From Eledone cirrhosa (Eukaryota), in contig OZ024740.1 in assembly GCA_964016885.1 (NCBI GenBank), positions 138,446,001 through 138,510,000 of the forward strand: a stretch of 64,000 nucleotides of DNA. The letters run 5' to 3'. The translations under genes were made by a program, and so were the position numbers. Shown here one piece after another: positions 15,001 to 46,764 of this stretch. Under the pieces are notes generated by a model. The model did not search any database. It was not told the DNA's origin and worked only from the letters and a program-made list of their open reading frames with translations. Every line of letters begins with the position of its first letter. Positions within the stretch are counted from its first letter, which is position 1.

Positions 15001-18000
15001 TTTCCCCCAATCTCCAATTCTCTCTTTCTCTTATCACTTTTCTCTCAATCTCCAATTCTCTCTTTCTCTTATCACTTTACCCCCAATCTCCAATTCTCTC
15101 TCTCTCTCTCTTATCACTTTCCCCCAATCTCCAATTATCTCATTCTCTTACCACTTTTCTCTCACTCTCCAATTCTCTCTTTCTCTTATCACTTTTCTCT
15201 CAATCTCCAATTCTCTCTTTCTCTTATCACTTTTCTCTCAATCTCCAATTCTCTCTTTCTCTTATCACTTTTCTCTCAATCTCCAATTCTCTCTTTCTCT
15301 TATCATTTTCCCCCCAATCTCCAATTCTCTCTCTCTCTTATCACTTTTCCCCCAATCTCCAATTCTCTCTTTCTCTTATCACTTTTCTCTCAATCTCCAA
15401 TTCTCTCTTTCTCTTATCACTTTTCTCTCAATCTCCAATTCACTCTCTCTCTTATCACTTTTCCCGCAATCTCCAATTCTCTCTCTCTCTTATCACTTTT
15501 CTCTCAATCTCCAATTCTCTCTCTCTCTTATCACTTTTCCCCCAATCTCCAATACTCTCTTTCAATTATCACTTTTCTCTCAATCTCCAATTCTCTCTTT
15601 CTCTTATCACTTTTCTCTCAATCTCCAATTCTCTCTTTCTCTTATCACTTTTCTCTCAATCTCCAATTCTCTCTTTCTCTTATCACTTTTCTCTCAATCT
15701 CCAATTCTCTCTTTCTCTTATCACTTTTCTCTCAATCTCCAATTCTCTCTTTCTCTTATCACTTTTCCCCCAATCTCCAATTCTCTCTCTCTCTTATCAC
15801 TTTTCCCCAATCTCCAATTCTCTCATTCTCTTATCACTTTTCTGTCACTCTCCAATTCTCTCTTTCTCTTATCACTTTTCTCTCAATCTCCAATTCTCTC
15901 TTTCTCTTATCACTTTTCTCTCAATCTCCAATTCTCTCTTTCTCTTATCACTTTTCTCTCAATCTCCAATTCTCTCTTTCTCTTATCATTTTCCCCCCAA
16001 TCTCCAATTCTCTCTCTCTCTTATCACTTTTCCCCCAATCTCCAATTCTCTCTTTCTCTTATCACTTTTCTCTCAATCTCCAATTCTCTCTTTCTCTTAT
16101 CACTTTTCTCTCAATCTCCAATTCTCTCTTTCTCTTATCACTTTTCTCTCAATCTCCAATTCTCTCTTTCTCTTATCACTTTTCTCTCAATCTCCAATTC
16201 TCTCTCTCTCTTATCACTTTTCTCTCAATCTCCAATTCTCTCTTTCTCTTATCACTTTTCTCTCAATCTCCAATTCTCTCTTTCTCTTATCACTTTTCCC
16301 CCAATCTCCAATTCTCTCTCTCTCTCTTATCACTTTTCCCCCAATCTCCAATTCTCTCATTCTCTTACCACTTTTCTCTCACTCTCCAATTCTCTCTTTC
16401 TCTTATCACTTTTCTCTCAATCTCCAATTCTCTCTTTCTCTTATCACTTTTCTCTCAATCTCCAATTCTCTCTTTCTCTTATCACTTTTCTCTCAATCTC
16501 CAATTCTCTCTTTCTCTTATCACTTTTCTCTCAATCTCCAATTCTCTCTTTCTCTTATCATTTTCCCCCCAATCTCCATTCTCTCTCTCTCTTATCACTT
16601 TTCCCCCAATCTCCAATTCTCTCTTTCTCTTATCACTTTCTCTCAATCTCCAATTCTCTCTTTCTCTTATCACTTTTCTCTCAATCTCCAATTCTCTCTT
16701 TCTCTTATCACTTTTCTCTCAATCTCCAATTCTCTCTTTCTCTTATCACTTTTCTCTCAATCTCCAATTCTCTCTTTCTCTTATCACTTTTCCCCCAATC
16801 TCCAATTCTCTCTCTCTCTTATCACTTTTCCCCAATACTCCAATTCTCTCATTCTCTTATCACTTTTCTCTCACTCTCCAATTCTCTCTTTCTCTTATCA
16901 CTTTTCTCTCAATCTCCAATTCTCTCTTTCTCTTATCACTTTTCTCTCAATCTCCAATTCTCTCTTTCTCTTATCACTTTTCTCTCAATCTCCAATTCTC
17001 TCTTTCTCTTATCATTTTCCCCCCAATCTCCAATTCTCTCTCTCTCTTATCACTTTTCCCCCAATCTCCAATACTCTCTTTCTCTTATCACTTTTCTCTC
17101 AATCTCCAATTCTCTCTTTCTCTTATCACTTTTCTCTCAATCTCCAATTCTCTCTTTCTCTTATCACTTTTCTCTCAATCTCCAATTCTCTCTTTCTCTT
17201 ATCACTTTTCTCTCAATCTCCAATTCTCTCTCTCTCTTATCACTTTTCCCCCAATCTCCATTCTCTCTCTCTCTTATCACTTTTCTCTCAATCTCCAATT
17301 CTCTCTCTCTCTTATCACTTTTCCCCCAATCTCCAATTCTCTCTTTCTCTTATCACTTTTCTCTCAATCTCCAATTCTCTCTCTCTCTTATCACTTTTCC
17401 CCCAATCTCCAATTCTCTCTCTCTCTTATCACTTTTCCCCCAATCTCCAATTCTCTCATTCTCTTATCACTTTTCTCTCACTCTCCAATTCTCTCTTTCT
17501 CTTATCACTTTTCTCTCAATCTCCAATTCTCTCTTTCTCTTATCACTTTCTCTCAATCTCCAATTCTCTCTTTCTCTTATCATTTTCCCCCTAATCTCCA
17601 ATTCTCTCTCTCTCTTATCACTTTTCCCCCAATCTCCAATTCTCTCTTTCTCTTATCACTTTTCTCTCAATCTCCAATTCTCTCTTTCTCTTATCACTTT
17701 TCTCTCAATCTCCAATTCTCTCTTTCTCTTATCACTTTTCTCTCAATCTCCAATTCTCTCTTTCTCTTATCACTTTCTCTCAATCTCCAATTCTCTCTCT
17801 CTCTTATCACTTTTCTCTCAATCTCCAATTCTCTCTCTCTCTTATCACTTTTCTCTCAATCTCCAATTCTCTCTCTCTCTTATCACCTTTCCCCCAATCT
17901 CCAATTCTCTCTCTCTCTTATCACTTTTCTCTCAATCTCCAATTCTCTCTTTCTCTTATCACTTTCTCTCAATCTCCAATTCTCTCTTTCTCTTATCACT

Positions 18001-19825
18001 TTTCTCTCAATCTCCAATTCTCTCTTTCTCTTATCATTTTCCCCCCAATCTCCAATTCTCTCTCTCTCTTATCACTTTTCCCCCAATCTCCAATTCTCTC
18101 TTTCTCTTATCACTTTTCTCTCAATCTCCAATTCTCTCTCTCTCTTATCACTTTTCCCCAATCTCCAATTCTCTCTTTCTCTTATCACTTTTCTCTTAAT
18201 CTCCAATTCTCTCTTTCTCTTATCACTTTTCTCTCAATCTCCAATTCTCTCTTTCTCTTATCACTTTTCTCTCAATCTCCAATTCTCTCTTTCTCTTATC
18301 ACTTTTCTCTCAATCTCCAATTCTCTCTCTCTCTTATCACTTTTCCCACAATCTCCAATTCTCTCTCTCTCTTATCACTTTTCCCCCAATCTCCAATTCT
18401 CTCTTTCTCTTATCACTTTTCTCTCAATCTCCAAATCTCTCTTTCTCTTATCACTTTTCCCCCAATCTCCAATCCTCTCTTTCTCTTATCACTTTTCTCT
18501 CAATCTCCAATTCTCTCTTTCTCTTATCATTTTTCCCTCAATCTCCAATTCTCTCTTTCTCTTATCACTTTTCTCTCAATCTCCAATTCTCTCTTCTCTT
18601 ATCACTTTTCTCTCAATCTCCAATTCTCTCTTTCTCTTATCACTTTTCTCTCAATCTCCTATTCTCTCTTTCTCTTATCACTTTTCTCTCAATCTCCAAT
18701 TCTCTCTTTCTCTTATCACTTTTCTCTCAATCTCCAATTCTCTCTTTCTCTTATCACTTTTCTCTCAATCTCCAATTCTCTCATCTCTTATCACTTTTCC
18801 CCCAATCTCCAATTCTCTCTCTCTCTTATCACTTTTCCCCCAATCTCCAATTCTCTCTTTCTCTTATCACTTTTCTCTCAATCTCCAATTCTCTCTATCT
18901 CTTATCACTTTTCTCTCAATATCCAATTCTCTCTTTCTCTTATCACTTTTCTCTCAATCTCCAATTCTCTCTTTCTCTTATCACTTTTCCCCCCAATCTC
19001 CAATTCTCTCTCTCTCTTTATCACTTTCCCCAAACTCCAATTCTCTCTTTCTTATCACTTTTCCCCCAATCTCCAATTCTCTCTTTCTCTTATCACTTTT
19101 CTCTCAATCTCCAATTCTCTCTTTCTCTTATCACTTTACCCCCAATCTCCAATTCTCTCTCTCTCTCTCTTATCACTTTCCCCCAATCTCCAATTATCTC
19201 ATTCTCTTACCACTTTTCTCTCACTCTCCAATTCTCTCTTCTCTTATCACTTTTCTCTCAATCTCCAATTCTCTCTTTCTCTTATCACTTTTCTCTCAAT
19301 CTCCAATTCTCTCTTTCTCTTATCACTTTTCTCTCAATCTCCAATTCTCTCTTTCTCTTATCATTTTCCCCCAATCTCCAATTCTCTCTCTCTCTTATCA
19401 CTTTTCCCCCAATCTCCAATTCTCTCTTTCTCTTATCACTTTTCTCTCAATCTCCAATTCTCTCTTTCTCTTATCACTTTTCTCTCAATCTCCAATTCAC
19501 TCTCTCTCTTATCACTTTTCCCGCAATCTCCAATTCTCTCTCTCTCTTATCACTTTTCTCTCATCTCCAATTCTCTCTCTCTCTTATCACTTTTCCCCAA
19601 TCTCCAATACTCTCTTTCAATTTATCACTTTCTCTCATCTCCAATTCTCTCTTTCTCTTATCACTTTTCTCTCAATCTCCAATTCTCTCTTTCTCTTATC
19701 ACTTTTCTCTCAATCTCCAATTCTCTCTTCTCTTATCACTTTTCTCTCAATCTCCAATTCTCTCTTTCTCTTATCACTTTTCTCTCAGTGCTCCAGATTT
19801 CTCTCTTTCTCTTTATCACTTTTCC
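1..19825 (+). repeat. 38-bp satellite array (satellite A), block 1
   Basis: Monomer ATCTCCAATTCTCTCTTTCTCTTATCACTTTTCTCTCA repeats every 38 nt (units start at 1, 39, ...). Common variants are TTTTCCCCCAA vs TTTTCTCTCAA and TCTCTCTCT vs TCTTTCTCT. The + strand is almost G-free. Indels increase towards the gap. Confidence 0.98.
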
Positions 19826-20025
19826 NNNNNNNNNNNNNNNNNNNNNNNNNNNNNNNNNNNNNNNNNNNNNNNNNNNNNNNNNNNNNNNNNNNNNNNNNNN
19901 NNNNNNNNNNNNNNNNNNNNNNNNNNNNNNNNNNNNNNNNNNNNNNNNNNNNNNNNNNNNNNNNNNNNNNNNNNNNNNNNNNNNNNNNNNNNNNNNNNNN
20001 NNNNNNNNNNNNNNNNNNNNNNNNN
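19826..20025. other. Assembly gap (200 N)
   Basis: Run of 200 N; the round number suggests a scaffolding placeholder of unknown true size. Confidence 0.99.
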
Positions 20026-21060
20026 GAGAATTGGATATTGAGAGAAAAGTGATAAGAGAAAGAGAGAATTGGAGATTGAGAGAAAAGTGATAAGAGAAAG
20101 AGAGAATTGGAGATTGGGGGAAAAGTGATAAGAGAGAGAGAGAATTGGAGATTGGGGGGAAAAGTGATAAGAGAATGAGAGAATTGGAGATTGAGAGAAA
20201 AGTGATAAGAGAAAGAGAGAATTGGAGTTTGAGAGAAAAGTGATAAGAGAAAGAGAGAATTGGAGATTGAGAGAAAAGTGATAAGAGAAAGAGAGAATTG
20301 GAGATTGAGAGAAAAGTGATAAGAGAAAGAGAGAATTGGAGATTGAGGGAAAAAGTGATAAGAGAAAGAGAGAATTGGAGATTGAGAGAAAAGTGATAAG
20401 AGAAAGAGAGAATTGGAGATTGGGGGAAAAGTGATAAGAGAAAGAGAGATTTGGAGATTGAGAGAAAAGTGATAAGTGAAAGAGAGAATTGGAGATTGGG
20501 GGAAAAGTGATAAGAGAGAGAGAGAATTGGAGATTGGGGGAAAAGTGATAAGAGAGAGAGAGAATTGGAGATTGAGAGAAAAGTGATAAGAGAAAGAGAG
20601 AATTGGAGATTGGGGGAAAAGTGATAAGAGAGAGAGAGAATTGGAGATTGAGAGAAAAGTGATAAGAGAGAGAGAGAATTGAGATTGGGGGGAAAAGTGA
20701 TAAGAGAAAGAGAGAATTGGAGATTGAGAGAAAAGTGATAAGAGAAAGAGAGAATTGGAGATTGAGAGAAAAGTGATAAGAGAAAGAGAGAATTGGAGAT
20801 TGAGAGAAAAGTGATAAGAAGACAGAGAGAATTGGAGATTGAGAGAAAAGTGATAAGAGAAAGAGAGAATTGGAGATTGAGAGAAAAGTGATAAGAGAGA
20901 AGAGAGAAGTTGGAGATTGAGAGAAAAGTGATAAGAGAAAGAGAGAATTGGAGATTGAGAGAAAAGTGATAGAGAAGAGAGAGAATTGGAGATGTGGGAA
21001 AAGTGATAAGAGAGAGAGAGAATTGGAGATTGGGAGGAAAAGTGATAGAGAGAGAGAGTC
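20026..21060 (-). repeat. Satellite A in inverted orientation (mirror copy of ~32,640-33,673)
   Basis: GAGAATTGGAGATTGAGAGAAAAGTGATAAGAGAAAGA is the reverse complement of the monomer. Rare variants at ~20,033, 20,171, 20,225 and 20,471 match variants at ~33,660, 33,521, 33,471 and 33,221 in mirror order. Confidence 0.93.
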
Positions 21061-21159
21061 AATTTGGCCCCTGAGCACCTCTAGAGAAAGAGTGAATTGG
21101 AGATTGAGATGCAAAGTCTTCTTAGAGAATTGTCTAGTCACAGCTCCCTCTCTTCCAAT

Positions 21160-24100
21160 TCTCAGATCTCTGCCCCTATCACCTCTCCCTCTCTCCAATG
21201 TCGCAGATTCTCCCTATCACCTCTCCTCTCTCCAAGTGTTCTCAATCGCTCCCCTATCACCTCTCCCTCTCTGCCAATTCTCAATCTCTCTCCCTATCAC
21301 CTCTCCCTCGCTCCAATTCAAATTTTCCCCTATCACCTCTCTCTCTCTCCAATTCTCAGATGTTTCCCCGATCACCTCTCTCTCTCCAAGTCTCAATCTC
21401 TCCCCTATCACCTCTCCCTCTCTCCAATTCTCAATGTTCCCCTTCACCGCTCTCTCTCTCCAATTCTCAATCTCTCGCCCTATCACCTCTCCGCTCTCTC
21501 CAATTCTCAATTTTCCCCTATCACCACTCTCGCTCTCCAATTCTCAATTTTCCCCTATCACCTCTCTCTTTCTCTCCAATTCTCAATCTCTCCCCTATCA
21601 CCTCTCTCTCTCTCCAATTAACAATCTCTCCCCTATCACCTCTCCCTCTCTCCAATTCTCAATCTCTCCCCTATCACCTCTCCCTCTCTCCAATTCTCAA
21701 TCTCTCCCCTATCACCTCTCCCTCTCTCCAATTCTCAATCTCTCCCCTATCACCTCTCCCTCTCTCCAATTCTCAATCTTTCCCCTATCACCTCTCCCTC
21801 TCTCCAATTCTCAATCTCTCCCCTATCACCTCTCCCTCTCTCCAATTCTCAATTCTTCCCCTATCACCTCTCCCTCTCTCAAATTCTCAATCTCTCCCCT
21901 ATCACCTCTCCCTCTCTCCAATTCTCAATTTTTCCCCTATCACCTCTCTCTCTCTCCAATCTCAATTTTTCCCCTATCACCTCTCTCTCTCTCCAATTCT
22001 CTATCTCTCCCCTATCACCTCTCCCTCTCTCCAATTCGTCAATCTTTCCCCCATCACCTCTCCCTCTCTCCAATTCTCAATCTCTCCCCCATCACCTCTC
22101 CCTCTCTCCAATTCTCAATTTTTCCCCTATCACCTCTCTCTCTCTCCAACTCTCAATTTTTCCCCTGATCACCTCTCTCTCTCTCCAATTCTCAATCTCT
22201 CCCCTATCACCTCTCCCTCTCTCCAATTCTCAATCTTTCCCCCATCACCTCTCCCTCTCTCCAATTCTCAATTCTCTCCCCTATCACCTCTCCCTCTCTC
22301 CAATTCTCAATCTCTCCCCTATCACCTCTCCCTCTCTCCAATTCTCAATCTCTCCCCTATCACCTCTCCCTCTCTCCAATTCTCAATCTTTCCCCTATCA
22401 CCTCTCCCTCTCTCCAATTCTCAATCTCTCCCCTATCACCTCTCCCTCTCTCCAATTCTCAATTTTTCCCCTATCACCTCTCCCTCTCTCAAATTTCTCA
22501 ATCTCTCCCCTATTACCTCTCCCTCTCTCCAATTCTCAATTTTTCCCCTATCACCTCTCTCTCTCTCCAATTCTCAATTTATCCCCTATCACCTCTCTCT
22601 CTCTCCAATTCTCAATCTCTCCCCTATCACCTCTCTCTCTCTCCAATTCTCAATCTCTCCCCTATCACCTCTCCCTCTCTCCAATTCTCAATCTCTCCCC
22701 TATCACCTCTCCCTCTCTCCAATTCTCAATTTTTCCCCTATCACCTCTCTCTCTCTCCAATTCTAAATTTTTCCCCTATCACCTCTCCCTCTCTCCAATT
22801 CTCAATCTCTCCCCTATCACCTCTCCCTATTCTCCAATTCACAATTTTTCCCCTATCACCTCTCTCTCTCTCCAATTCTCAATTTTTTTCCCCTATCACC
22901 TCTCCCTCGCTCCAATTCTCAATCTCTCCCCTATCACCTCTCCCTCTCTCCAATTCACAATCTCTCCCCTATCACCTCTCCCTCTCTCCAATTCTCAATC
23001 TCTCCCCTATCACCTCTCCCTCTCTCCAATTCTCAATTTTTCCCCTATCACCTCTCTCTCTCTCCAATTCTCAATTTTTCCCCTATCACCCCTCCCTCTC
23101 TCCAATTCTCAATCTCTCCCCTATCACCTCTCCCTCTCTCCAATTCTCAATCTCTCCCCTATCACCTCTCCCTCTCTCCAATTCTCAATCTCTCCCCTAT
23201 CACCTCTCCCTCTCTCCAATTCTCAATCTCTCCCCTATCACCTCTCCCTCTCTCCAATTCTCAATCTCTCCCCTATCACCTCTCCCTCTCTCCAATTCTC
23301 AATCTCTCCCCTATCACCTCTCCCTCTCTCCAATTCTCAATTTGTCCCCTATCACCTCTCTCTCTCTCCAATTCTCAATTTTTCCCCTATCACCTCTCTC
23401 TCTCTCCAATTCTCAATCTCTCCCCTATCACCTCTCCCTCTCTCCAATTCTCAATTTTTCCCCTATCACCTCTCTCTCTCTCCAATTCTCAATCTCTCCC
23501 CTATCACCTCTCTCTCTCTCCAATTCTCAATTTTTCCCCTATCACCTCTCTCTCTCTCCAATTCTCAATCTCTCCCCTATCACCTCTCCCTCTCTCCAAT
23601 TCTCAATTTTTCCCCTATCACCTCTCTCTCTCTCCAATTCTCAATCTCTCCCCTATCACCTCTCTCTCTCTCCAATTCTCAATTTTCCCCTATCACCTCT
23701 CTCTCTCTCCAATTCTCAATCTCTCCCCTATCACCTCTCCCTCTCTCCAATTCTCAATCTCTCCCCTATCACCTCTCCCTCTCTCCAATTCTCAATCTCT
23801 CCCCTATCACCTCTCCCTCTCTCCAATTCTCAATCTCTCCCCTATCACCTCTCCCTCTCTCCAATTCTCAATTTTTCCCCTATCACCTCTCTCTCTCTCC
23901 AATTCTCAATTTTTTCCCCATCACCTCTCCCTCTCTCCAATTCTCAATCTCTCCCCTATCACCTCTCCCTCTCTCCAATTCTCAATCTCTCCCCTATCAC
24001 CTCTCCCTCTCTCCAATTCTCAATCTCTCCCCTATCACCTCTCCCTCTCTCCAATTCTCTATCTCTCCCCTATCACCTCTCCATCTCTCCAATTCTCAAT

Positions 24101-26836
24101 TTTTCCCCTATCACCTCTCTCTCTCTCTCCAATTCTCAATTTTTCCCCTATCACCTCTCCCTCTCTCCAATTCTCAATCTCTCCCCTATCACCTCTCCCT
24201 CTCTCCAATTTCTCAATTTTTCCCCTATCACCTCTCCCTCTCTCCAATTCTCAATTCTTCCCCTATCACCTCTCCCTCTCTCAAATTCTCAATCTCTCCC
24301 CTATCACCTCTCCCTCTCTCCAATTCTCAATTTTTCCCCTATCACCTCTCTCTCTCTCCAATTCTCAATTTTTCCCCTATCACCTCTCTCTCTCTCCAAT
24401 TCTCAATCTCTCCCCTATCACCTCTCCCTCTCTCCAATTCTCAATCTTTCCCCCATCACCTCTCCCTCTCTCCAATTCTCAATCTCTCCCCCATCACCTC
24501 TCCCTCTCTCCAATTCTCAATTTTTCCCCTATCACCTCTCTCTCTCTCCAACTCTCAATTTTTCCCCTATCACCTCTCTTCTCTCTCCAATTCTCAATCT
24601 CTCCCCTATCACCTCTCCCTCTCTCCAATTCTCAATCTTTCCCCCATCACCTCTCCCTCTCTCCAATTCTCAATCTCTCCCCTATCACCTCTCCCTCTCT
24701 CCAATTCTCAATCTCTCCCCTATCACCTCTCCCTCTCTCCAATTCTCAATCTCTCCCCTATCACCTCTCCCTCTCTCCAATTCTCAATCTTTCCCCTATC
24801 ACCTCTCCCTCTCTCCAATTCTCAATCTCTCCCCTATCACCTCTCCCTCTCTCCAATTCTCAATTTTTCCCCTATCACCTCTCCCTCTCTCAAATTCTCA
24901 ATCTCTCCCCTATTACCTCTCCCTCTCTCCAATTCTCAATTTTTCCCCTATCACCTCTCTCTCTCTCCAATTCTCAATTTATCCCCTATCACCTCTCTCT
25001 CTCTCCAATTCTCAATCTCTCCCCTATCACCTCTCTCTCTCTCCAATTCTCAATCTCTCCCCTATCACCTCTCCCTCTCTCCAATTCTCAATCTCTCCCC
25101 TATCACCTCTCCCTCTCTCCAATTCTCAATTTTCCCCTATCACCTCTCTCTCTCTCCAATTCTAAATTTTTCCCCTATCACCTCTCCCTCTCTCCAATTC
25201 TCAATCTCTCCCCTATCACCTCTCCCTATCTCCAATTCACAATTTTTCCCCTATCACCTCTCTCTCTCTCCAATTCTCAATTTTTTTCCCCTATCACCTC
25301 TCCCTCTCTCCAATTCTCAATCTCTCCCCTATCACCTCTCCCTCTCTCCAATTCACAATCTCTCCCCTATCACCTCTCCCTTCTCTCCAATTCTCAATCT
25401 CTCCCCTATCACCTCTCCCTCTCTCCAATTCTCAATTTTTCCCCTATCACCTCTCTCTCTCTCCAATTCTCAATTTTTCCCCTATCACCCCTCCCTCTCT
25501 CCAATTCTCAATCTCTCCCCTATCACCTCTCCCTCTCTCCAATTCTCAATCTCTCCCCTATCACCTCTCCCTCTCTCCAATTCTCAATCTCTCCCCTATC
25601 ACCTCTCCCTCTCTCCAATTCTCAATCTCTCCCCTATCACCTCTCCCTCTCTCCAATTCTCAATCTCTCCCCTATCACCTCTCCCTCTCTCCAATTCTCA
25701 ATCTCTCCCCTATCACCTCTCCCTCTCTCCAATTCTCAATTTTTCCCCTATCACCTCTCTCTCTCTCCAATTTCTCAATTTTTCCCCTATCACCTCTCTC
25801 TCTCTCCAATTCTCAATCTCTCCCCTATCACCTCTCCCTCTCTCCAATTCTCAATTTTTCCCCTATCACCTCTCTCTCTCTCCAATTCTCAATCTCTCCC
25901 CTATCACCTCTCTCTCTCTCCAATTCTCAATTTTGCCCCTATCACCTCTCTCTCTCTCCAATTCTCAATCTCTCCCCTATCACCTCTCCCTCTCTCCAAT
26001 TCTCAATTTTTCCCCTATCACCTCTCTCTCTCTCCAATTCTCAATCTCTCCCCTATCACCTCTCTCTCTCTCCAATTCTCAATTTTTCCCCTATCACCTC
26101 TCTCTCTCTCCAATTCTCAATCTCTCCCCTATCACCTCTCCCTCTCTCCAATTCTCAATCTCTCCCCTATCACCTCTCCCTCTCTCCAATTCTCAATCTC
26201 TCCCCTATCACCTCTCCCTCTCTCCAATTCTCAATCTCTCCCCTATCACCTCTCCCTCTCTCCAATTCTCAATTTTTCCCCTATCACCTCTCTCTCTCTC
26301 CAATTCTCAATTTTTTCCCCATCACCTCTCCCTCTCTCCAATTCTCAATCTCTCCCCTATCACCTCTCCCTCTCTCCAATTCTCAATCTCTCCCCTATCA
26401 CCTCTCCCTCTCTCCAATTCTCAATCTCTCCCCTATCACCTCTCCCTCTCTCCAATTCTCTATCTCTCCCCTATCACCTCTCCATCTCTCCAATTCTCAA
26501 TTTTTCCCCTATCACCTCTCTCTCTCTCTCCAATTCTCAATTTTTCCCCTATCACCTCTCCCTCTCTCCAATTCTCAATCTCTCCCCTATCACCTCTCCC
26601 TCTCTCCAATTCTCAATTTTTCCCCTATCACCTCTCCCTCTCTCCAATTCTAATTTTTCCCCTATCACCTCTCTCTCTCTCCAATTCTCAATGTTTTCCC
26701 CTATCACCTCTCCCTCTCTCCAATTCTCAATTCTCTCCCCTATCACCTCTCCCTCTCTCCAATTCACAATCTCTCCCCTATCACCTCTCCCTCTCTCCAA
26801 TTCTCAATCTCTCCCCTATCACCTCTCCCTCTCTCC
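21160..26836. repeat. Apparent second 38-bp satellite (B) = letter-substituted reverse complement of satellite A; probable base-calling artefact
   Basis: Unit TCTCCAATTCTC-AATCTCTCCCC-TATCAC-CTCTCCCTC equals revcomp(A) GAGAATTGGAGA-TTGAGAGAAAA-GTGATA-AGAGAAAGA under G>T, A>C, T>A at all 38 positions. Noisy transition at ~21,040-21,600. Confidence 0.9.
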
Positions 26837-26890
26837 ACCACTCACCTCCTCCCCCCCCCCCCCCTTCTTTCTTCTTCCCCTACATCTACA
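26837..26890 (+). other. Probable PacBio SMRTbell hairpin adapter, letter-substituted
   Basis: Observed C14 (26,851-26,864), TTCTTTCTTCTT, CCCC. The adapter ATCTCTCTC-AACAACAACAAC-GGAGGAGGAGG-AAAA-GAGAGAGAT under G>T,T>A,A>C,C>C gives CACACACAC-C12-TTCTTCTTCTT-CCCC-TCTCTCTCA. It lies at the centre of the mirror symmetry; the flanks match only loosely. Confidence 0.8.
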
Positions 26891-27960
26891 CTCTACAACA
26901 CACTAACACATACACCCAAAACACACCCACACCCCAACACACAAACACAACACCCAAAACACACCCACACCCCAACACACAAACACAACACCCAAAACAC
27001 ACCCACACCCCAACACACAAACACAACACCCAAAACCCCCCCCACACCCCAACACACACACACAACACCCAAAACCCCCCCCCACCCCAACACACAAACA
27101 CAACACCCAAAACCCCCCACACCCCAACACACAAACACAACACCCAAAACACACCCACACCCCAACACACAAACACAACACCCAAAACCCCCCACACCCC
27201 AACACACACTCACAACACCCAAAACCCCCCACACCCCAACACACCAACACAACACCCAAAACACACCCACACCCCAACACACAAACACAACACCCAAAAC
27301 ACACCACACCCAAACACACAATCACAACACCCAAAACACACCACACCCCAACACACAAACACAACACCCAAAACACACCCACACCCCAACACACAAACAC
27401 TACACCAAAACCCCCCCACACCCCATCACACACACACAACACCCAAAACCCCCCACTCCCCAACACTCAACTCACACCCAAATCACACCCACACCCAACA
27501 CTCCAACACAACTCCCAAAACCACCCACACCCATACACACAAACACAACACCCATAACACACCCACACCCCTTCACACTAACACAACACCCAAAACACAC
27601 CCACTCCCATCACTCACACACAACTCCCAATACCCCCACACCCCATCTCACTCACACAACACCTTATCACACAATCTCCCAATCACACTCACTCACAACA
27701 CTCTAACACTCCCACACCCCAACACACTAACACTACACCCAATACTCTCAACTCCCAATCTCACTCACTCTACTCCCTAATACCCCCCAACTCCCATCTC
27801 ACACACTCATCTCACTATACACTCCAATCTCCCTACTCTCTCACTCATCACCCATTTCCCCCACACTCCATTCTCTCAACTCTACTCTCTATACTCTCCA
27901 CTCCATCACTCTCTCTCAACACCTATCCCCCCACTCCTCACTCTCACTCTTACACACTAT
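26891..27960. repeat. Apparent A/C-only 38-bp repeat (C) = letter-substituted forward satellite A, grading back into A
   Basis: Unit ACACAAACAC-AACACCCAAA-ACACACCCAC-ACCCCAAC equals TCTCTTTCTC-TTATCACTTT-TCTCTCAATC-TCCAATTC under T>A, A>C, C>C. T reappears progressively from ~27,450 to ~28,100. Confidence 0.88.
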
Positions 27961-30900
27961 TCCCCCAAATCTCCAATTCTCTCTTTCTCTTATCACTTCT
28001 CAATCTCCAATCTCACTTTCTCTTATCACTTTCTCTCAATCTCCAATTCTCTCTCTTCTCTATCACTTTCTCTCAATCTCCAATTCTCTCTTCTCTTATC
28101 ACTATTCTCTCAATCTCCAATTCTCTCTTTCTCTTATCACTTTTCTCTCAATCTCCAATTCTCTCTTTCTCTTATCACTTTTCTCTCAATCTCCAATTCT
28201 CTCTTTCTGTTATCACTTTTCCCCAATCTCCAATTCTCTCTCTCTCTTATCACTTTTCCCCCAATCTCCAATTCTCTCTTTCTCTTATCACTTTTCTCTC
28301 AATCTCCAATTCTCTCTTTCTCTTATCACTTTTCTCTCAATATCCAATTCTCTCTTTCTCTTATCACTTTTCTCTCAATCTCCAATTCTCTCTTTCTCTT
28401 ATCACTTTTCCCCCCCAATCTCCAATTCTCTCTCTCTCTTATCACTTTTCCCCCAATATCCAATTCTCACTTTCTCTTATCACTTTTCTCTCAATCTCCA
28501 ATTCTCTCTTTCTCTTATCACTTTTCCCCCAAACTCCAATTCTCTCTCTCTCTTATCACTTTTCCCCCAATCTCCAATTCTCTCTTTCTCTTATCACTTT
28601 TCTCTCAATCTCCAATTCTCTCTTTCTCTTATCACTTTTCTCTCAATCTCCAATTCTCTCTCTCTCTTATCACTTTTCTCTCAATCTCCAATTCTCTCTC
28701 TCTCTTATCACTTTTCACCCAATCTCCAATTCTCTCTCTCTCTTATCACTTTTCCCCCAATCTCCAATTCTCTCTTTCTCTTACCACTTTTCTCTCAATC
28801 TCCAAATCTCTCTTTCTCTTATCACTTTGCCCCCAATCTCCAATTCTCTCTTTCTCTTATCACTTTTCTCTCAATCTCCAATTCTCTCTTTCTCTTATCA
28901 CTTTTCCCTCAATCTCCAATTCTCTCTTTCTCTTATCACTTTTCTCTCAATCTCCAATTCTCTCTTTCTCTTATCACTTTTCTCTCAATCTCCAATTCTC
29001 TCTTTCTCTTATCACTTTTCTCTCAATCTCCAATTCTCTCTTTCTCTTATCATTTTTCCCTCAATCTCCAATTCTCTCTTTCTCTTATCACTTTTCTCTC
29101 AATCTCCAATTCTCTCTCTCTCTTATCACTTTTCCCCAATCTCGAATTCTCTCTCTCTCTTATCACTTTTCCCCCAATCTCCAATTCTCTCTTTCTCTTA
29201 TCAGTTTTCTCTCAATCTCCAATTCTCTCTTTCTCTTATCATTTTTCCCTCAATCTCCAATTCTCTCTTTCTCTTATCACTTTTCTCTCAATCTCCAATT
29301 CTCTCTCTCTCTTATCACTTTTCCCCCAATCTCCAATTCTCTCTCTCTCTTATCACTTTTCCCCCAATCTCCAATTCTCTCTTTCTCTTATCACTTTTCT
29401 CTCAATCTCCAAATCTCTCTTTCTCGTATCACTTTTCCGCCAATCTCCAATTCTCTCTTTCTCTTATCACTTTTCCCCCAATCTCCAATTCTCTCTTTCT
29501 CTTATCACTTTTCTCTCAATCTCCAATTCTCTCTTTCTCTTATCACTTTTCCCCAATCTCCAATTCTCTCTCTCTCTCTTATCACTTTTCCCCCAATCTC
29601 CATTCTCTCATTCTCTTATCACTTTTCTCTCACTCTCCAATTCTCTCTTTCTCTTATCACTTTTCTCTCAATCTCCAATTCTCTCTTTCTCTTATCACTT
29701 TTCTCTCAATCTCCAATTCTCTCTTTCTCTTATCACTTTTCTCTCAATCTCCAATTCTCTCTTTCTCTTATCATTTTCCCCCCAATCTCCAATTCTCTCT
29801 CTCTCTTATCACTTTTCCCCAATCTCCAATTCTCTCTTTCTCTTATCACTTTTCTCTCAATCTCCAATTCTCTCTTTCTCTTATCACTTTTCTCTCAATC
29901 TCCAATTCTCTCTTTCTCTTATCACTTTTCTCTCAATCTCCAATTCTCTCTTTCTCTTATCACTTTTCTCTCAATCTCCAATTCTCTCTCTCTCTTATCA
30001 CTTTTCCCCCAATCTCCAATTCTCTCTCTCTCTTATCACTTTTCTCTCAATCTCCAATTCTCTCTCTCTCTTATCACTTTTCCCCCAATCTCCAATTCTC
30101 TCTTTCTCTTATCACTTTTCTCTCAATCTCCAATTCTCTCTCTCTCTTATCACTTTTCCCCCAATCTCCAATTCTCTCTCTCTCTTATCACTTTTCTCTC
30201 AATCTCCAATTCTCTCTCTCTCTTATCACTTTTCCCCAATCTCCAATTCTCTCTTTCTCTTATCACTTTTCTCTCAATCTCCAATTCTCTCTCTCTCTTA
30301 TCACTTTTCCCCCAATCTCCAATTCTCTCTCTCTCTTATCACTTTTCCCCCAATCTCCAATTCTCTCTTTCTCTTATCACTTTTCTCTCAATCTCCAATT
30401 CTCTCTTTCTCTTATCACTTTTCTCTCAATCTCCAATTCTCTCTTTCTCTTATCACTTTTCTCTCAATCTCCAATTCTCTCTTTCTCTTATCACTTTTCT
30501 CTCAATCTCCAATTCTCTCTTTCTCTTATCACTTTTCTCTCAATCTCCAATTCTCTCTTTCTCTTATCACTTTTCTCTCAATCTCCAATTCTCTCTTTCT
30601 GTTATCACTTTTCCCCCAATCTCCAATTCTCTCTCTCTCTTATCACTTTTCCCCCAATCTCCAATTCTCTCTTTCTCTTATCACTTTTCTCTCAATCTCC
30701 AATTCTCTCTTTCTCTTATCACTTTTCTCTCAATATCCAATTCTCTCTTTCTCTTATCACTTTTCTCTCAATCTCCAATTCTCTCTTTCTCTTATCACTT
30801 TTCCCCCCCAATCTCCAATTCTCTCTCTCTCTTATCACTTTTCCCCCAATATCCAATTCTCACTTTCTCTTATCACTTTTCTCTCAATCTCCAATTCTCT

Positions 30901-33900
30901 CTTTCTCTTATCACTTTTCCCCCAAACTCCAATTCTCTCTCTCTCTTATCACTTTTCCCCAATCTCCAATTCTCTCTTTCTCTTATCACTTTTCTCTCAA
31001 TCTCCAATTCTCTCTTTCTCTTATCACTTTTCTCTCAATCTCCAATTCTCTCTCTCTCTTATCACTTTTCTCTCAATCTCCAATTCTCTCTCTCTCTTAT
31101 CACTTTTCACCCAATCTCCAATTCTCTCTCTCTCTTATCACTTTTCCCCCAATCTCCAATTCTCTCTTTCTCTTACCACTTTTCTCTCAATCTCCAAATC
31201 TCTCTTTCTCTTATCACTTTGCCCCCAATCTCCAATTCTCTCTTTCTCTTATCACTTTTCTCTCAATCTCCAATTCTCTCTTTCTCTTATCACTTTTCCC
31301 TCAATCTCCAATTCTCTCTTTCTCTTATCACTTTTCTCTCAATCTCCAATTCTCTCTTTCTCTTATCACTTTTCTCTCAATCTCCAATTCTCTCTTTCTC
31401 TTATCACTTTTCTCTCAATCTCCAATTCTCTCTTTCTCTTATCATTTTTCCCTCAATCTCCAATTCTCTCTTTCTCTTATCACTTTTCTCTCAATCTCCA
31501 ATTCTCTCTCTCTCTTATCACTTTTCCCCCAATCTCGAATTCTCTCTCTCTCTTATCACTTTTCCCCCAATCTCCAATTCTCTCTTTCTCTTATCAGTTT
31601 TCTCTCAATCTCCAATTCTCTCTTTCTCTTATCATTTTTCCCTCAATCTCCAATTCTCTCTTTCTCTTATCACTTTTCTCTCAATCTCCAATTCTCTCTC
31701 TCTCTTATCACTTTTCCCCCAATCTCCAATTCTCTCTCTCTCTTATCACTTTTCCCCCAATCTCCAATTCTCTCTTTCTCTTATCACTTTTCTCTCAATC
31801 TCCAAATCTCTCTTTCTCGTATCACTTTTCCGCCAATCTCCAATTCTCTCTTTCTCTTATCACTTTTCTCTCAATCTCCAATTCTCTCTTTCTCTTATCA
31901 CTTTTCCCTCAATCTCCAATTCTCTCTTTCTCTTATCACTTTTCTCTCAATCTCCAATTCTCTCTTTCTCTTATCACTTTTCTCTCAATCTCCAATTCTC
32001 TCTTTCTCTTATCACTTTTCTCTCAATCTCCAATTCTCTCTTTCTCTTATCACTTTTCTCTCAATAACCAATTCTCTCTCTCTCTTATCACTTTTCTCTC
32101 AATCTCCAATTCTCTCCCTCTCTCTTATCACTTTTCCCCCAATCTCCAATTCTCTCTCTCTATTATCACTTTTCCCCAATCTCCAATTCTCTCTTTCTCT
32201 TATCACTTTTCTCTCAATCTCCAATTCTCTCTCTCTCTTATCACTTTTCCCCCAATCTCCAATTCTCTCTTTCTCTTATCACTTTTCTCTCAATCTCCAA
32301 TTCTCTCTCTCTCTTATCACTTTTCCCCCAATCTCCAATTCTCTCTCTCTCTTATCACTTTTCCCCCAAACTCCAATTCTCTCTTTCTCTTATCACTTTT
32401 CTCTCAATCTCCAATTCTCTCTTTCTCTTATCACTTTTCTCTCAATCTCCAATTCTCTCTTTCTCTTATCACTTTTCTCTCAATCTCCAATTCTCTCTTT
32501 CTCTTATCACTTTTCTCTCAATCTCCAATTCACTCTTTCTCTTATCACTTTTCTCTCAATCTCCAATTCTCTCTCTCTCTTATCACTTTTCCCCCAATCT
32601 CCAATTCTCTCTCTCTCTTATCACTTTTCCCCCAATCTTCAATTCTCTCTGTTTCTTATCCCTTTTCTCTCAATCTCCAATTCTCTCTTTCTCTTATCAT
32701 TTTTCTCTCAATCTCCAATTCTCTCTGTTTCTTATCACTTTTCTCTCAATCTCCAATTCTCTCTTTCTCTTATCACTTTTCCCCCAATCTCCAATTCTCT
32801 CTTTCTCTTATCACTTTTCTCTCAATCTCCAATTCTCTCTTTCTCTTATCACTTTTCTCTCAATCTCCAATTCTCTCTGTTTCTTATCACTTTTCTCTCA
32901 ATCTCCAATTCTCTCTTTCTCTTATCACTTTTCTCTCAATCTCCAATTCTCTCTTTCTCTTATCACTTTTCTCTCAATCTCCAATTCTCTCTTTCTCTTA
33001 TCATTTTCCCCCCAATCTCCAATTCTCTCTCTCTCTTATCACTTTTCTCTCAATCTCCAATTCTCTCTCTCTCTTATCACTTTTCCCCCAATCTCCAATT
33101 CTCTCTTTCTCTTATCACTTTTCTCTCAATCTCCAATTCTCTCTCTCTCTTATCACTTTTCCCCCAATCTCCAATTCTCTCTCTCTCTTATCACTTTTCC
33201 CCCAATCTCCAATTCTCTCTTTCACTTATCACTTTTCTCTCAATCTCCAAATCTCTCTTTCTCTTATCACTTTTCCCCCAATCTCCAATTCTCTCTTTCT
33301 CTTATCACTTTTCTCTCAATCTCCAATTCTCTCTTTCTCTTATCATTTTTCCCTCAATCTCCAATTCTCTCTTTCTCTTATCACTTTTCTCTCAATCTCC
33401 AATTCTCTCTTTCTCTTATCACTTTTCTCTCAATCTCCAATTCTCTCTTTCTCTTATCACTTTTCTCTCAAACTCCAATTCTCTCTTTCTCTTATCACTT
33501 TTCTCTCAATCTCCAATTCTCTCATTCTCTTATCACTTTTCCCCCAATCTCCAATTCTCTCTCTCTCTTATCACTTTTCCCCCAATCTCCAATTCTCTCT
33601 TTCTCTTATCACTTTTCTCTCAATCTCCAATTCTCTCTTTCTCTTATCACTTTTCTCTCAATATCCAATTCTCTCTTTCTCTTATCACTTTTCTCTCAAT
33701 CTCCAATTCTCTCTTTCTCTTATCACTTTTCCCCCAATCTCCAATTCTCTCTCTCTCTTATCACTTTTCCCCCAAACTCCAATTCTCTCTTTCTCTTATC
33801 ACTTTTCCCCCAATCTCCAATTCTCTCTTTCTCTTATCACTTTTCTCTCAATCTCCAATTCTCTCTTTCTCTTATCACTTTTCCCCCAATCTCCAATTCT

Positions 33901-36900
33901 CTCTCTCTCTCTTATCACTTTTCCCCCAATCTCCAATTCTCTCATTCTCTTATCACTTTTCTCTCACTCTCCAATTCTCTCTTTCTCTTATCACTTTTCT
34001 CTCAATCTCCAATTCTCTCTTTCTCTTATCACTTTTCTCTCAATCTCCAATTCTCTCTTTCTCTTATCACTTTTCTCTCAATCTCCAATTCTCTCTTTCT
34101 CTTATCATTTTCCCCCCAATCTCCAATTCTCTCTCTCTCTTATCACTTTTCCCCCAATCTCCAATTCTCTCTTTCTCTTATCACTTTTCTCTCAATCTCC
34201 AATTCTCTCTTTCTCTTATCACTTTTCTCTCAATCTCCAATTCTCTCTTTCTCTTATCACTTTTCTCTCAATCTCCAATTCTCTCTTTCTCTTATCACTT
34301 TTCTCTCAATCTCCAATTCTCTCTCTCTCTTATCACTTTTCCCCCAATCTCCAATTCTCTCTCTCTCTTATCACTTTTCTCTCAATCTCCAATTCTCTCT
34401 CTCTCTTATCACTTTTCCCCCAATCTCCAATTCTCTCTTTCTCTTATCACTTTTCTCTCAATCTCCAATTCTCTCTCTCTCTTATCACTTTTCCCCCAAT
34501 CTCCAATTCTCTCTCTCTCTTATCACTTTTCTCTCAATCTCCAATTCTCTCTCTCTCTTATCACTTTTCCCCCAATCTCCAATTCTCTCTTTCTCTTATC
34601 ACTTTTCTCTCAATCTCCAATTCTCTCTCTCTCTTATCACTTTTCCCCCAATCTCCAATTCTCTCTCTCTCTTATCACTTTTCCCCCAATCTCCAATTCT
34701 CTCTTTCTCTTATCACTTTTCTCTCAATCTCCAATTCTCTCTTTCTCTTATCACTTTTCTCTCAATCTCCAATTCTCTCTTTCTCTTATCACTTTTCTCT
34801 CAATCTCCAATTCTCTCTTTCTCTTATCACTTTTCTCTCAATCTCCAATTCTCTCTTTCTCTTATCACTTTTCTCTCAATCTCCAATTCTCTCTTTCTCT
34901 TATCACTTTTCTCTCAATCTCCAATTCTCTCTTTCTCTTATCACTTTTCCCCCAATCTCCAATTCTCTCTCTCTCTTATCACTTTTCCCCCAATCTCCAA
35001 TTCTCTCTTTCTCTTATCACTTTTCTCTCAATCTCCAATTCTCTCTTTCTCTTATCACTTTTCTCTCAATATCCAATTCTCTCTTTCTCTTATCACTTTT
35101 CTCTCAATCTCCAATTCTCTCTTTCTCTTATCACTTTTCCCCCCAATCTCCAATTCTCTCTCTCTCTTATCACTTTTCCCCCAATATCCAATTCTCACTT
35201 TCTCTTATCACTTTTCTCTCAATCTCCAATTCTCTCTCTCTCTTATCACTTTTCCCCCAAACTCCAATTCTCTCTCTCTCTTATCACTTTTCCCCCAATC
35301 TCCAATTCTCTCTTTCTCTTATCACTTTTCTCTCAATCTCCAATTCTCTCTTTCTCTTATCACTTTTCTCTCAATATCCAATTCTCTCTCTCTCTTATCA
35401 CTTTTCTCTCAATCTCCAATTCTCTCTCTCTCTTATCACTTTTCGCCCAATCTCCAATTCTCTCTCTCTCTTATCACTTTTCCCGCAATCTCCAATTCTC
35501 TCTTTCTCTTACCACTTTTCTCTCAATCTCCAAATCTCTCTTTCTCTTATCACTTTCCCCCCAATCTCCAATTCTCTCTTTCTCTTATCACTTTTCTCTC
35601 AATCTCCAATTCTCTCTTTCTCTTATCACTTTTCCCTCAATCTCCAATTCTCTCTTTCTCTTATCACTTTTCTCTCAATCTCCAATTCTCTCTTTCTTTT
35701 ATCACTTTTCTCTCAATAACCAATTCTCTCTCTCTCTTATCACTTTTCTCTCAATCTCCAATTCTCTCCCTCTCTCTTATCACTTTTCCCCCAATCTCCA
35801 ATTCTCTCTCTCTATTATCACTTTTCCCCCAATCTCCAATTCTCTCTTTCTCTTATCACTTTTCTCTCAATCTCCAATTCTCTCTCTCTCTTATCACTTT
35901 TCCCCCAATCTCCAATTCTCTCTTTCTCTTATCACTTTTCTCTCAATCTCCAATTCTCTCTCTCTCTTATCACTTTTCCCCCAATCTCCAATTCTCTCTC
36001 TCTCTTATCACTTTTCCCCCAAACTCCAATTCTCTCTTTCTCTTATCACTTTTCTCTCAATCTCCAAATCTCTCTTTCTCTTATCACTTTTCCCCCAATC
36101 TCCAATTCTCTCTTTCTCTTATCACTTTTCTCTCAATCTCCAATTCTCTCTTTCTCTTATCATTTTTCCCTCAATCTCCAATTCTCTCTTTCTCTTATCA
36201 CTTTTCTCTCAATCTCCAATTCTCTCTTTCTCTTATCACTTTTCTCTCAATCTCCAATTCTCTCTTTCTCTTATCACTTTTCTCTCAATCTCCAATTCTC
36301 TCTTTCTCTTATCACTTTTCTCTCAATATCCAATTCTCTCTCTCTCTTATCACTTTTCTCTCAATCTCCAATTCTCTCTCTCTCTTATCACTTTTCCCCC
36401 AATCTCCAATTCTCTCTCTCTCTTATCACTTTTCCCCCAATCTTCAATTCTCTCTGTTTCTTATCCCTTTTCTCTCAATCTCCAATTCTCTCTTTCTCTT
36501 ATCATTTTTCTCTCAATCTCCAATTCTCTCTGTTTCTTATCACTTTTCTCTCAATCTCCAATTCTGTCTTTCTCTTATCACTTTTCCCCCAATCTCCAAT
36601 TCTCTCTTTCTCTTATCACTTTTCTCTCAATCTCCAATTCTCTCTTTCTCTTATCACTTTTCTCTCAATCTCCAATTCTCTCTGTTTCTTATCACTTTTC
36701 TCTCAATCTCCAATTCTCTCTTTCTCTTATCACTTTTCTCTCAATCTCCAATTCTCTCTTTCTCTTATCACTTTTCTCTCAATCTCCAATTCTCTCTCTC
36801 TCTTATCACTTTTCCCCCAATCTCCAATTCTCTCTCTCTCATATCACTTTTCTCTCAATCTTCAATTCTCTCTGTTTCTTATCCCTTTTCTCTCAATCTC

Positions 36901-37109
36901 CAATTCTCTCTTTCTCTTATCATTTTTCTCTCAATCTCCAATTCTCTCTGTTTCTTATCACTTTTCTCTCAATCTCCAATTCTCTCTTTCTCTTATCACT
37001 TTTCTCTCAATCTCCAATTCTCTCTTTCTCTTATCACTTTTCTCTCAATCTCCAATTCTCTCTTTCTCTTATCACTTTTCTCTCAATTTCCAACTCTCTC
37101 TTTCTCTTA
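27961..37109 (+). repeat. 38-bp satellite array (satellite A), block 2
   Basis: Same monomer and orientation as block 1. Internal ~2,392-bp duplication (TTTGCCCCC at ~28,827 and ~31,219; TACCAC at 28,782 and 31,174). Ends abruptly at ...TTTCTCTTA 37,109. Confidence 0.97.
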
Positions 37110-37689
37110 CAAACAACTAACCAAACACACACACCTTTAATGACTTTGAACATGTTTGTGTATTTAATTCAATATTAAATGCTGTTCGCTGTCGCAGCAT
37201 CTTACTGTATGTTTTTGGCCGTATCTAAACTCCGTTTCTTCTCTGGGTGTGTCTAAACCTGTAGTGATTTTGAGAAATTTATTAACATAATTGAATTTGT
37301 CTTTCTGATAAAAGAAATATTCTCTACATTTTCATTTATAACTGGAATAAATATATGCTTTAAATAACCGTTTAGGATATTTTTTTTTATCAATATATCT
37401 TGATTATTCCCAAACTATACTTATGTTTACAATGAAAAAGTGGTCAACGTACAATAACATGTTTTGATAGTCCTGATTATCAAATCCACAATTTTAAAAT
37501 TGCGTGAAAGAAGTAAGACATGAGAGCAATAAAACTTTGTAATTTTTATCGCTTAGTCAGGAGGAAGAGAAATGCCTGTGACCTTTTAAGGTCCCCCAAG
37601 ATATGAGGGGGAGGGGGAGGTATCTTTAAACTGGAGACCTGGTCGGAAACGTTTGCAACAGAGTGGACTCTACTAACGGCAACGAGATT

Positions 37690-38550: not shown

Positions 38551-39126
38551 ATAATAAAACTTAAAGAACAAAACATTTACTACTAGGATTTTACCACGAG
38601 AGGATCCATAATAAACTAGCGACTGACATTTTGGATGCATAAAATTTTAATTTTTAAAGGTAAGAACCCTACTGGATTAAATAATTATCTAATTATTGAT
38701 TATATTCAACCTGATAAATTTGAACCGACCTACAGGCAATCCCTATATAACGAATTTGTGTAATTGTTTTTCAGAAACGTAATCTCCAATGTTTAAAGCA
38801 GAACTCCAAATAAAGTATCTATTAAATATATATAAAAAATAAGTATTGGGATAAGTCAGCATATATAAGCGTGAAACTAATGTTAATACATTCTTTTGTT
38901 CGTTTCTTGTTTTGATATATATATGGAGGGAATATATTAGGTTAACATTTGATATAGCAGGAAGAGGGTCTTAAGGTTTCGGATGCTAGTCTTTCATCAG
39001 AAGAAAGAATGAGAAATAAGATAGATTGAGGGGACGGGTGGGTTGATGGTGCCGTAACTCCCGATAAAGTCGTTGGGGTGCCGATGGCAATTTGTAAAAC
39101 CTGATGGAGCACATTTTCTCTCTAAG

Positions 39127-39180
39127 ACACACACACACACACATACACACACACATATATTTATATATATGCATATATAT

Positions 39181-39234
<54 letters not shown>

Positions 39235-39317
39235 ACACACACATATATATATATGCATATATATAAACACACACAAACATATATATATATATGCATATAT
39301 ATAAACACACACACACA

Positions 39318-39370
<53 letters not shown>

Positions 39371-39380
39371 GCGTATATAT
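39127..39380. repeat. Compound (CA)n/(TA)n microsatellite
   Basis: (CA)n tracts separated by a repeated ATATATATGCATATATATAAA spacer. Confidence 0.95.
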
Positions 39381-39892
39381 TTATTATTCACCAGCAAAAT
39401 TGTTGGAATATTCCGAACAAAATCAACTACTTTTGAAAATTTATGTTGCTTTTTAAAAAAATCCTATCTATCATCCCTAGCCAAACCTCGTAATTTGATT
39501 GGTTGTTGGGATACTATAGTGTTAGCGTTGTTGAAATATATGAGTAGAAAATACTGGTTATACGGAAATATAATGTAAAACGAGAAATGGAAAATGGAAA
39601 AATAGGGAGAAAATTGTGGAGAAGAATAGAAAAGAAAGAAACGATAAGTTGAAAGAAAATAAGAAAAAGGACATTTAGGATTATCACATAATATATATTG
39701 ATTGAAAACGCCGATATATATACAAAGGAAAAAGTAATAAAAGAAAGAAAAGGAAGAACATTTTTTTCCTAAAAAGTTTATAGTATTTTTCTTTTCAATC
39801 GGTGTATTATGCAATCGTTTTAAATCTCTTGTTATTCTCTTGTCTTTTATTTATCATATGTTCTTCCCTTCGTTTTTTTTCATCTACTATTT

Positions 39893-40105
39893 TATATCCT
39901 AATTGTATATCAACGCTATAGGATCCGCAACTCCAGTCCAAATTACAAGTTTATTTCTAAAATATCTCGTGATATTTTCGTGATGTTAGACCATATATTT
40001 CTATATTTTTATATTTCTACACATATGCCCATTATTAATCTAACTACTACTAAAAGAACCGAAAGGCGAACAAACCGACTCGTAACTTTGATTAAATATT
40101 CTACG

Positions 40106-40184
<79 letters not shown>

Positions 40185-40207
40185 TTATATATATATATAT
40201 TCATACA

Positions 40208-40268
<61 letters not shown>

Positions 40269-40677
40269 GCAAAAGTTCTATTTAAATTGTTGGGATACAA
40301 CAAGTAAATATTTTTATAACTGATATAAAGCACTCGACAAGTATTTGGAGTAGATATACGATATTAATAAATGGAAACTATATTTATAAAACCATATTTA
40401 TTTCATTATACATATTTCAAGGATACCAAGTTAAATTATGGTATGCCTTCATCAGACAAAATACAATATATATATCAGTTTTACAAATAAGCATTGACGT
40501 ACCCTTTCAAAATGCGACCATTACTTTTGGAGGACATCAGGATAGTGGTTTGTTTATATTATTTTAGTAAGTCTTAGTGTTAAGGACAATTACAAAAGAC
40601 GGAGAGAGATATATATATATATACACACACACATGTATGAATATATATATGTGTGTGGGGGGGGGGGCGTGTATATT

Positions 40678-40726
<49 letters not shown>

Positions 40727-40938
40727 GTAGAATATTTAATCAAAGTTACGAGTCGGTTTGTTCGCCTTTCGGTTCTTTTAGTAGTAGTTAGATTAATAAT
40801 GGGCATATGTGTAGAAATATAAAAATATAGAAATATATGGTCTAACATCTCGAAAATATCACGAGATATTTTAGAAATAAACTTGTAATTTGGACTGGAG
40901 TTGCGGATCCTATAGCGTTGATATACAATTAGGATATA
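39893..40938. repeat. Inverted repeat pair: ~215-bp unique arms plus adjoining microsatellites
   Basis: 39,893-~40,108 (TATATCCTAATTGTATATCAACGCTATAGGATCCGC...TTCTACGTATA) is the near-exact reverse complement of ~40,722-40,938. TTCATACATGTGTGTG is also mirrored at ~40,625-40,642. Confidence 0.92.
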
Positions 40939-41019
40939 CATATATATATATATTTATATATGTAGTGTAGTGTAATTTGAGCTCCCATACACCTAGCTGC
41001 TCAAATAGAAAGCCAGAGT

Positions 41020-41410: not shown

Positions 41411-41636
41411 TCCTGAAAAACTGGAAAAATTCACCCTTGCCAGATAAAAAAACAAACAAACAAACTCTATCACCACAGATTCCACTCACTAACCACTGAT
41501 ATCAGATATCTACTTCCAGATGGATCCTCCTGTCTAAACTCATTATTTTACCTGCCAACTCCATTTAGACCCTACAATAGTGAGCTCCTATTATTTCCTC
41601 ATATAATGTTTTTTGTATAACCTATTTTTAAATTAT

Positions 41637-42134: not shown

Positions 42135-42199
<65 letters not shown>

Positions 42200-42490: not shown

Positions 42491-42526
<36 letters not shown>

Positions 42527-42665: not shown

Positions 42666-42668
42666 ATA

Positions 42669-42754
<86 letters not shown>

Positions 42755-46700: not shown

Positions 46701-46764
<64 letters not shown>

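Follow-up and report, generated by a model that had tools for sequence, protein, structure and literature searches.

The 13,648-nt mirror structure at positions 20,026-33,673 of the window (the whole 64,000-nt stretch of DNA analysed here) is almost certainly an artefact, and very probably one of PacBio hairpin read-through. Our full reading concerns one molecule and was drawn from the assembled sequence, and we hold it with good confidence: the mirror would be a single PacBio consensus read of a satellite molecule of 6.8 kb. On its C-free strand the base caller would have slid by one signal level, the adapter between the strands would have been missed and the two strands joined. A level shift in the base caller is the probable cause of the letter code in which about half of the mirror is written. 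The artefact belongs to a known sequencing type; its letter-shifted form was not found described in the literature searched and appears to be new. The features on which this reading is based are given in Table 1.

Table 1. Coordinates of the satellite array, the contig break and the parts of the mirror structure (window positions).
Feature	Positions	Strand	Description
Satellite A, block 1	1-19,825	+	TRF period 38; almost without G (25 G in 19,825 nt); previous contig
Scaffold gap, 200 N	19,826-20,025		Contig starts at 20,026
R	20,026-21,050	+	Purine (C-free) strand of satellite A, normal calls; start of left arm
Onset zone	21,050-21,550	+	Shifted code begins at ~21,075-21,150 and is noisy to ~21,550 (state tracks)
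B	21,160-26,837	+	Satellite purine strand in shifted code (A>C, G>T, T>A, C>C)
Central insert, 58 nt	26,838-26,895	+	Between the arms; core at 26,853-26,880
C	26,896-27,400	+	Pyrimidine strand of the molecule; the shifted code persists (T>A, A>C)
Recovery zone	27,400-28,050	+	Calls drift back to normal
Right arm (read as the real copy)	28,050-33,673	+	Satellite A, normal calls
Satellite A beyond the mirror	33,674-37,109	+	Extends to the junction with unique DNA

Satellite A has a 38-bp unit and spans positions 1 to 37,109, interrupted by the 200-N gap. It forms a long polypyrimidine-rich tract with 0.13-0.27% G on the + strand, and its purine strand contains 15 C in 5,614 nt (0.27% C) and is approximately 83% A+G. 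Triplex formation by this tract might bias sequencing in its own right. A 3,198-codon stop-free frame across the satellite was considered as a gene and was rejected, being a by-product of the missing G. Of the distinct 60-mers of block 2 (28,060-37,100), 1,060/2,945 are common to block 1, so both sides of the gap represent one array in one orientation. Higher-order duplications measure 3,498, ~4,058, 5,583 and 5,770 bp in block 1, while those of block 2 measure 2,392, 3,652, 3,805 and 4,334 bp. Towards the gap (19,000-19,825) the previous contig becomes noisier: its last 825 nt contain 10 private 21-mer events, whereas the rest of block 1 has 0-3 per kb, and stray G occur near 19,790-19,800. 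This is probably a poorly supported read end.

The array ends sharply at 37,109-37,140 after one degenerate unit and is followed by a short A/C-rich stretch and then by AT-rich unique DNA with microsatellites and LINE-type fragments. Dinucleotide microsatellites (AC, TA, TG) are dense at 39,100-52,000 (~18 arrays). The ORF2 of a non-LTR (LINE-type) retrotransposon lies in pieces and in several frames at 60,478-63,695 on the - strand, with matches to the endonuclease model PF03372, RVT_1 and zf-RVT. Several open frames occur at 56,300-59,700 on the + strand; one of these (57,910-58,299) has a weak RVT_1 match just below the Pfam cut-off and three others have no Pfam match, and the region is probably a second decayed retroelement.

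The two arms of the mirror (6,812 and 6,778 nt) flank the central insert, and the left arm aligns end to end with the right, the alignment ending at 33,673. The 3,991-nt core of B (21,650-25,640), decoded with the letter map described below, differs from the right arm by 24 edits at the mirror position and by 134 edits at the next best place in 37.2 kb; for its two halves the corresponding values are 11 vs 53 and 12 vs 41 edits. The first 855 nt of R (20,026-20,880) differ by 5 edits at the mirror and by 25 at the next best place. In the alignment of the B core 3,970 positions match and 4 are substituted, B has 17 extra bases and the right arm has 3, and outside the switch zones the arms differ by 0.6%, which is consensus-grade and not single-pass accuracy. 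That 17 of the 20 indels are extra bases in B suggests that B was left without partner reads for correction, which the right arm had.

The sequence-only reading had proposed a hidden mirror palindrome from rare variants that pair across a centre near 26,850. Both of its direct pairs and all four of its decoded pairs were recovered exactly, with coordinate sums of 53,690-53,701, and the internal duplication of B (2,398-2,402 bp) mirrors that of the right arm (2,392-2,393 bp), as it had also claimed. Three of its five marker motifs are not rare in the array (15, 12 and 8 copies), the other two having 2 and 1 copies. We therefore give a count over all rare 15-mers (at most two array copies), from which those mirrored into the noisy zone 20,900-21,650 were dropped beforehand: 238/254, representing 16/18 sites, recur at the mirror position, the misses being located at 28,100 and 29,589. 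At six shifted control positions the counts were 3/215, 4/228, 13/254, 15/170, 22/254 and 32/254 (1-13%). A lone C at 20,823 in R faces a G at 32,879.

Shorter pieces are less telling. When 400-nt chunks were used, the mirror was the best place for 5/11 B chunks that face normal calls, and for the remaining 6 higher-order copies were 1-4 edits better; for one of the three R chunks (20,711-21,050) the mirror was absent from the top 7 places. Short chunks are thus ambiguous owing to the higher-order copies, and only the unbroken diagonal is diagnostic of the mirror. Block C has 12 edits at the mirror and two other array copies fit it as well (11 and 12 edits), so that the mirror is the best place for C only among left-arm positions (12 edits vs 19 for the next). 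Chunks of decoded B from 25,640-26,837 also fit another copy in the array (33,600-34,400), from which they differ by 0-3 edits per 400 nt.

The blocks of the mirror differ in their letters: R is written in A, G and T, B in C, T and A, and C in A and C only. For R, 97% of the 15-mers are found in the reverse complement of satellite A; the 21-mers of B and C are found nowhere else in the window. Among 256 letter maps in 4 orientations (1,024 combinations) the map A>C, T>A, G>T, C>C was the best for B, explaining 95.7% of its 15-mers when applied to the reverse complement of satellite A, compared with 0% for the identity. The same map applied to the forward strand explains 87.4% of the 15-mers of block C, where it was tied with three other maps that differ only at G; as satellite A lacks G, block C is uninformative at this letter. 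At 26,900-27,399, T>A was observed in 235/239 and A>C in 78/79 positions. The rare G variants of the right arm that face the B core are all C in B (12/12), which makes C the fixed point of the map. A naive decoding of B gave 12 false T/G mismatches, which were gone once C was treated as a fixed point. Plain reversal for B combined with plain complement for C fits the k-mers equally well and rewrites the same relations, but needs two maps, and the single map was preferred.

As a check, the sequence-only reading had further proposed to decode 21,160-26,836, reverse-complement it and align it with 26,890-32,540. Decoded B does fit the mirror, but the check needs an addition, since 26,896-~28,000, including block C, is itself coded and must be decoded too. 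The data support that 26,896-~28,000 is real DNA in the wrong letters and that the damage is wider than the limit first given. As the map loses only the distinction between A and C, decoded B gives back the true letters of the miscalled stretch 26,896-28,050.

The 28-nt core of the central insert opens with 12 C, continues with a TTC-type run of 12 nt and closes with 4 C. It holds the sole run of at least 10 C in positions 1-37,200 and is 8-22 edits away from the satellite in any of four states. The sequence of the 45-nt PacBio blunt adapter and of the C2 primer is printed in the Methods section of PMC8864876. When the 27-nt loop of this adapter was reverse-complemented and coded by the map, it matched the core by eye at 27/27 positions, the core having one T more. 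The stems (9 nt each) are noisy, and with its 58 nt the insert exceeds the 45 nt of the adapter by 13. The comparison was made by eye and carries no P value, one pre-chosen candidate having been placed at a pre-fixed position. The core is of low complexity, and as a control the coded unique flank (27 kb) reaches 4 and 6 edits of it by chance. The literal adapter, as printed in the Methods of PMC8864876, was not found by eye in the 58-nt insert, which is without G, and the match exists only through the map. The adapter-like core is oriented in the sense of the 3' end of the sequencing primer, which is also that of 89.6% of adapter hits in HiFi reads according to the results available from PMC8864876, and the + strand was for this reason taken as the direction of synthesis. 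The by-eye match supports the presence of a disguised PacBio hairpin adapter at the centre, and such an adapter indicates both the platform and the direction of the read.

The shifted code sets in ~1.05-1.1 kb past the contig start and persists across the centre. It remains pure as far as 27,400 and has faded by ~28,000, so that the return to normal calls falls 0.5-1.1 kb past the centre. In an alignment favouring no map, 65/68 substitutions in the recovery zone (27,700-28,090) were T>A or A>C; the errors of the onset zone, aligned in the same way, were mixed (A>C 11, A>T 11, A>G 8, G>C 7, G>T 7). The similar lags after the start and after the centre suggest that position 20,026 is near the true start of the subread. 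A reading along the - strand, with a down-shift C>A>T>G, is formally equivalent and was rejected: the adapter would then stand against the sense of the primer and both switches would precede the hairpins by ~1 kb, which we infer to be impossible for a causal caller.

The newer PacBio instruments distinguish the bases mainly by how bright their pulses are (C>A>T>G), with the levels re-estimated during the run. The map can be written as G>T>A>C, a chain that ends at the missing base, and this is what a level-based caller that re-fits three classes one step up would give. The following course of events may be envisaged. The template would be a SMRTbell with a 6.8-kb insert, of which the polymerase would copy the strand with 0.27% C. 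A caller re-estimating the pulse levels from the recent signal would lose the top class and re-fit A, T and G onto C, A and T; it would stay shifted through the hairpin and recover when C-rich sequence returns. The far hairpin would be met in the normal state and cut, leaving each subread as strand, disguised adapter and strand. Such a systematic error would be alike in all subreads, so that the consensus would polish it to ~99.4% instead of removing it, and the left arm, lacking an overlapping partner, would survive as the tip of the contig next to the gap. Some 29 kb of this G-free array are assembled in normal letters, and the shift is thus either not the fate of every molecule or usually filtered. 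Our literature search returned no paper stating the per-base brightness order C>A>T>G or an adaptive level estimate. Pulses are described as arising from incorporated bases in the accessible part of PMC10266321, and the portion of the DeepConsensus paper at hand assigns each base its own signal-to-noise value and gives no values.

The sequence-only reading had concluded that both strands of one molecule were read in a row and assembled. This is the only reading that covers the variant-level symmetry, the single map on both strands and the adapter-like insert. Its conclusions that the left arm is spurious, which we delimit as 20,026-26,895, and that the satellite inversion is not real are likewise supported.

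Among the alternatives, the least improbable, which we nevertheless consider unlikely, keeps the PacBio hairpin read-through and attributes the code to another fault (the consensus model, a drift in the brightness of this one well, or dye or optical cross-talk), with the missing C being incidental. It can draw on the normal calls in most of the G-free array, on the single case at hand (n=1) and on the level order, which none of the papers returned by our literature search states. Yet the shift sets in after ~1.1 kb of the C-free strand and is over before ~1.1 kb of the C-rich strand has been read, whereas random drift would not be locked to the sequence; and a difference of 0.6% after consensus requires that the shift came back in most passes, each time at the same places.

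It is very improbable that the mirror is a Nanopore fold-back read (template, then complement) with a repeat-calling error of the telomere type, although it resembles in outcome, not in form, the telomere errors reported by Tan et al., 2022 (PMC9414165): in the sections available of that paper a long repeat is confidently called as a repeat that is not in the genome, and the miscalls of one repeat as another are strand-specific. Systematic ONT miscalls have also been reported for GGGGCC, as far as the available passages of that work go. The errors described in those sections of PMC9414165 are confined to ONT and not seen in HiFi, stem from the likeness of k-mer currents and alter the content or length of the unit, whereas here strand-specific error repeats were not found: one per-base map serves both strands identically, with a lag, and keeps the rare variants (238/254). 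The match of the centre to the PacBio adapter loop and the difference of 0.6% between the arms also argue against this explanation.

A real fold-back molecule in the library, i.e., an amplification chimera with a centre free of adapter, would be expected to show the mirror symmetry at the level of variants, but it predicts a literal palindrome, and with 14/6,872 20-mers of 21,160-28,050 having a literal reverse complement within the region, and with the code and the 58-nt insert left over, we give it hardly any weight. Equally little credence is due to a real genomic arrangement of an inverted satellite block and two further satellites, B and C: satellites do invert and R is a literal inverted copy, but a genuine inversion has a literal reverse-complement arm and only ~1 kb of the 6.8-kb arm is literal, ~3,900 concerted substitutions in 4 kb would have had to follow one letter rule with every rare variant still in register, and the gradual blending zones, the adapter-like centre and the confinement of B and C to this place in the window would go unexplained.

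With respect to known artefacts, the mirror is most readily compared with error type D of Sim et al., 2022 (HiFiAdapterFilt, PMC8864876), which in the parts of that paper at our disposal is an internal adapter with an adjoining inverted duplicate in a contig. Three features of an adapter-containing HiFi read were found here, namely an adapter-derived centre (by eye), a flanking inverted duplicate and consensus-grade accuracy. The difference from type D as described there is that the adapter and 7 kb around it are letter-shifted and that no literal match over 44/45 nt at 97% or better was seen by eye; a filter with this threshold, or a search of the VecScreen type, would not see the coded adapter. 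The reason why such adapters escape removal is called unclear in the accessible text of PMC8864876, in which no letter shift is described. A description of a PacBio letter shift was likewise not found in our literature search, which covered mainly open-access papers, nor in the available part of a long-read paper on C9orf72.

The second comparison is with the dropout of HiFi reads at A/G (T/C)-rich low-complexity DNA, for which partial texts of four sources were available (PMC7545148, 10.1101/2021.07.02.450803, PMC13456413, PMC12758392). The kind of sequence is the same and a contig break lies inside it, here a 200-N gap in a 37-kb array with 0.13-0.27% G. These sources, in the parts available, report missing coverage without a PacBio base-calling mechanism, whereas the surviving read described here shows a possible one. 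The HiCanu paper, in its available passages, calls GA-rich dropout a weakness of the chemistry, and in the excerpted CHM13 results 77.5-81% of the low-coverage HiFi loci are GA/TC-rich and telomeres drop out too.

A more general failure of PacBio sequencing can be proposed only tentatively, and we regard it as doubtful: a nascent strand without C for ~1 kb would flip the caller by one level (G>T>A>C) and disguise the next hairpin, and such molecules would mostly fail consensus or alignment. If true, a base-calling cause that is fixable in software would lie behind a large part of the HiFi dropout seen at satellites rich in GA and at TTAGGG telomeres, and public assemblies would contain phantom satellites that can be decoded by this map. 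At telomeres, AACTTT arrays followed by the coded adapter and CCCACC arrays would be expected in the subreads, and the loss of GA-rich and telomeric DNA from HiFi data thereby becomes open to a direct k-mer test on existing subreads. Several observations speak against generalising. The ~29 kb of array in normal letters count against it. PacBio Onso short reads also lose GA-rich DNA, in Drosophila neither ONT nor PacBio succeeds, the main factor given being read initiation, and in the HiCanu example the repeat that is flanked measures just over 250 bp, less than the lag observed here (all three as given in the available portions of these sources).

HiFi errors are assumed to be random in the accessible part of PMC10266321. 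The present sequence would have been read wrong at most positions for 7 kb with consensus-grade consistency, and literal adapter and palindrome filters would pass it; repeat annotators would record B and C as new satellites. For the biology of this locus the reading means that there is no inversion and that there are no satellites B or C, and that ~8 kb of the contig start are to be removed or re-lettered.
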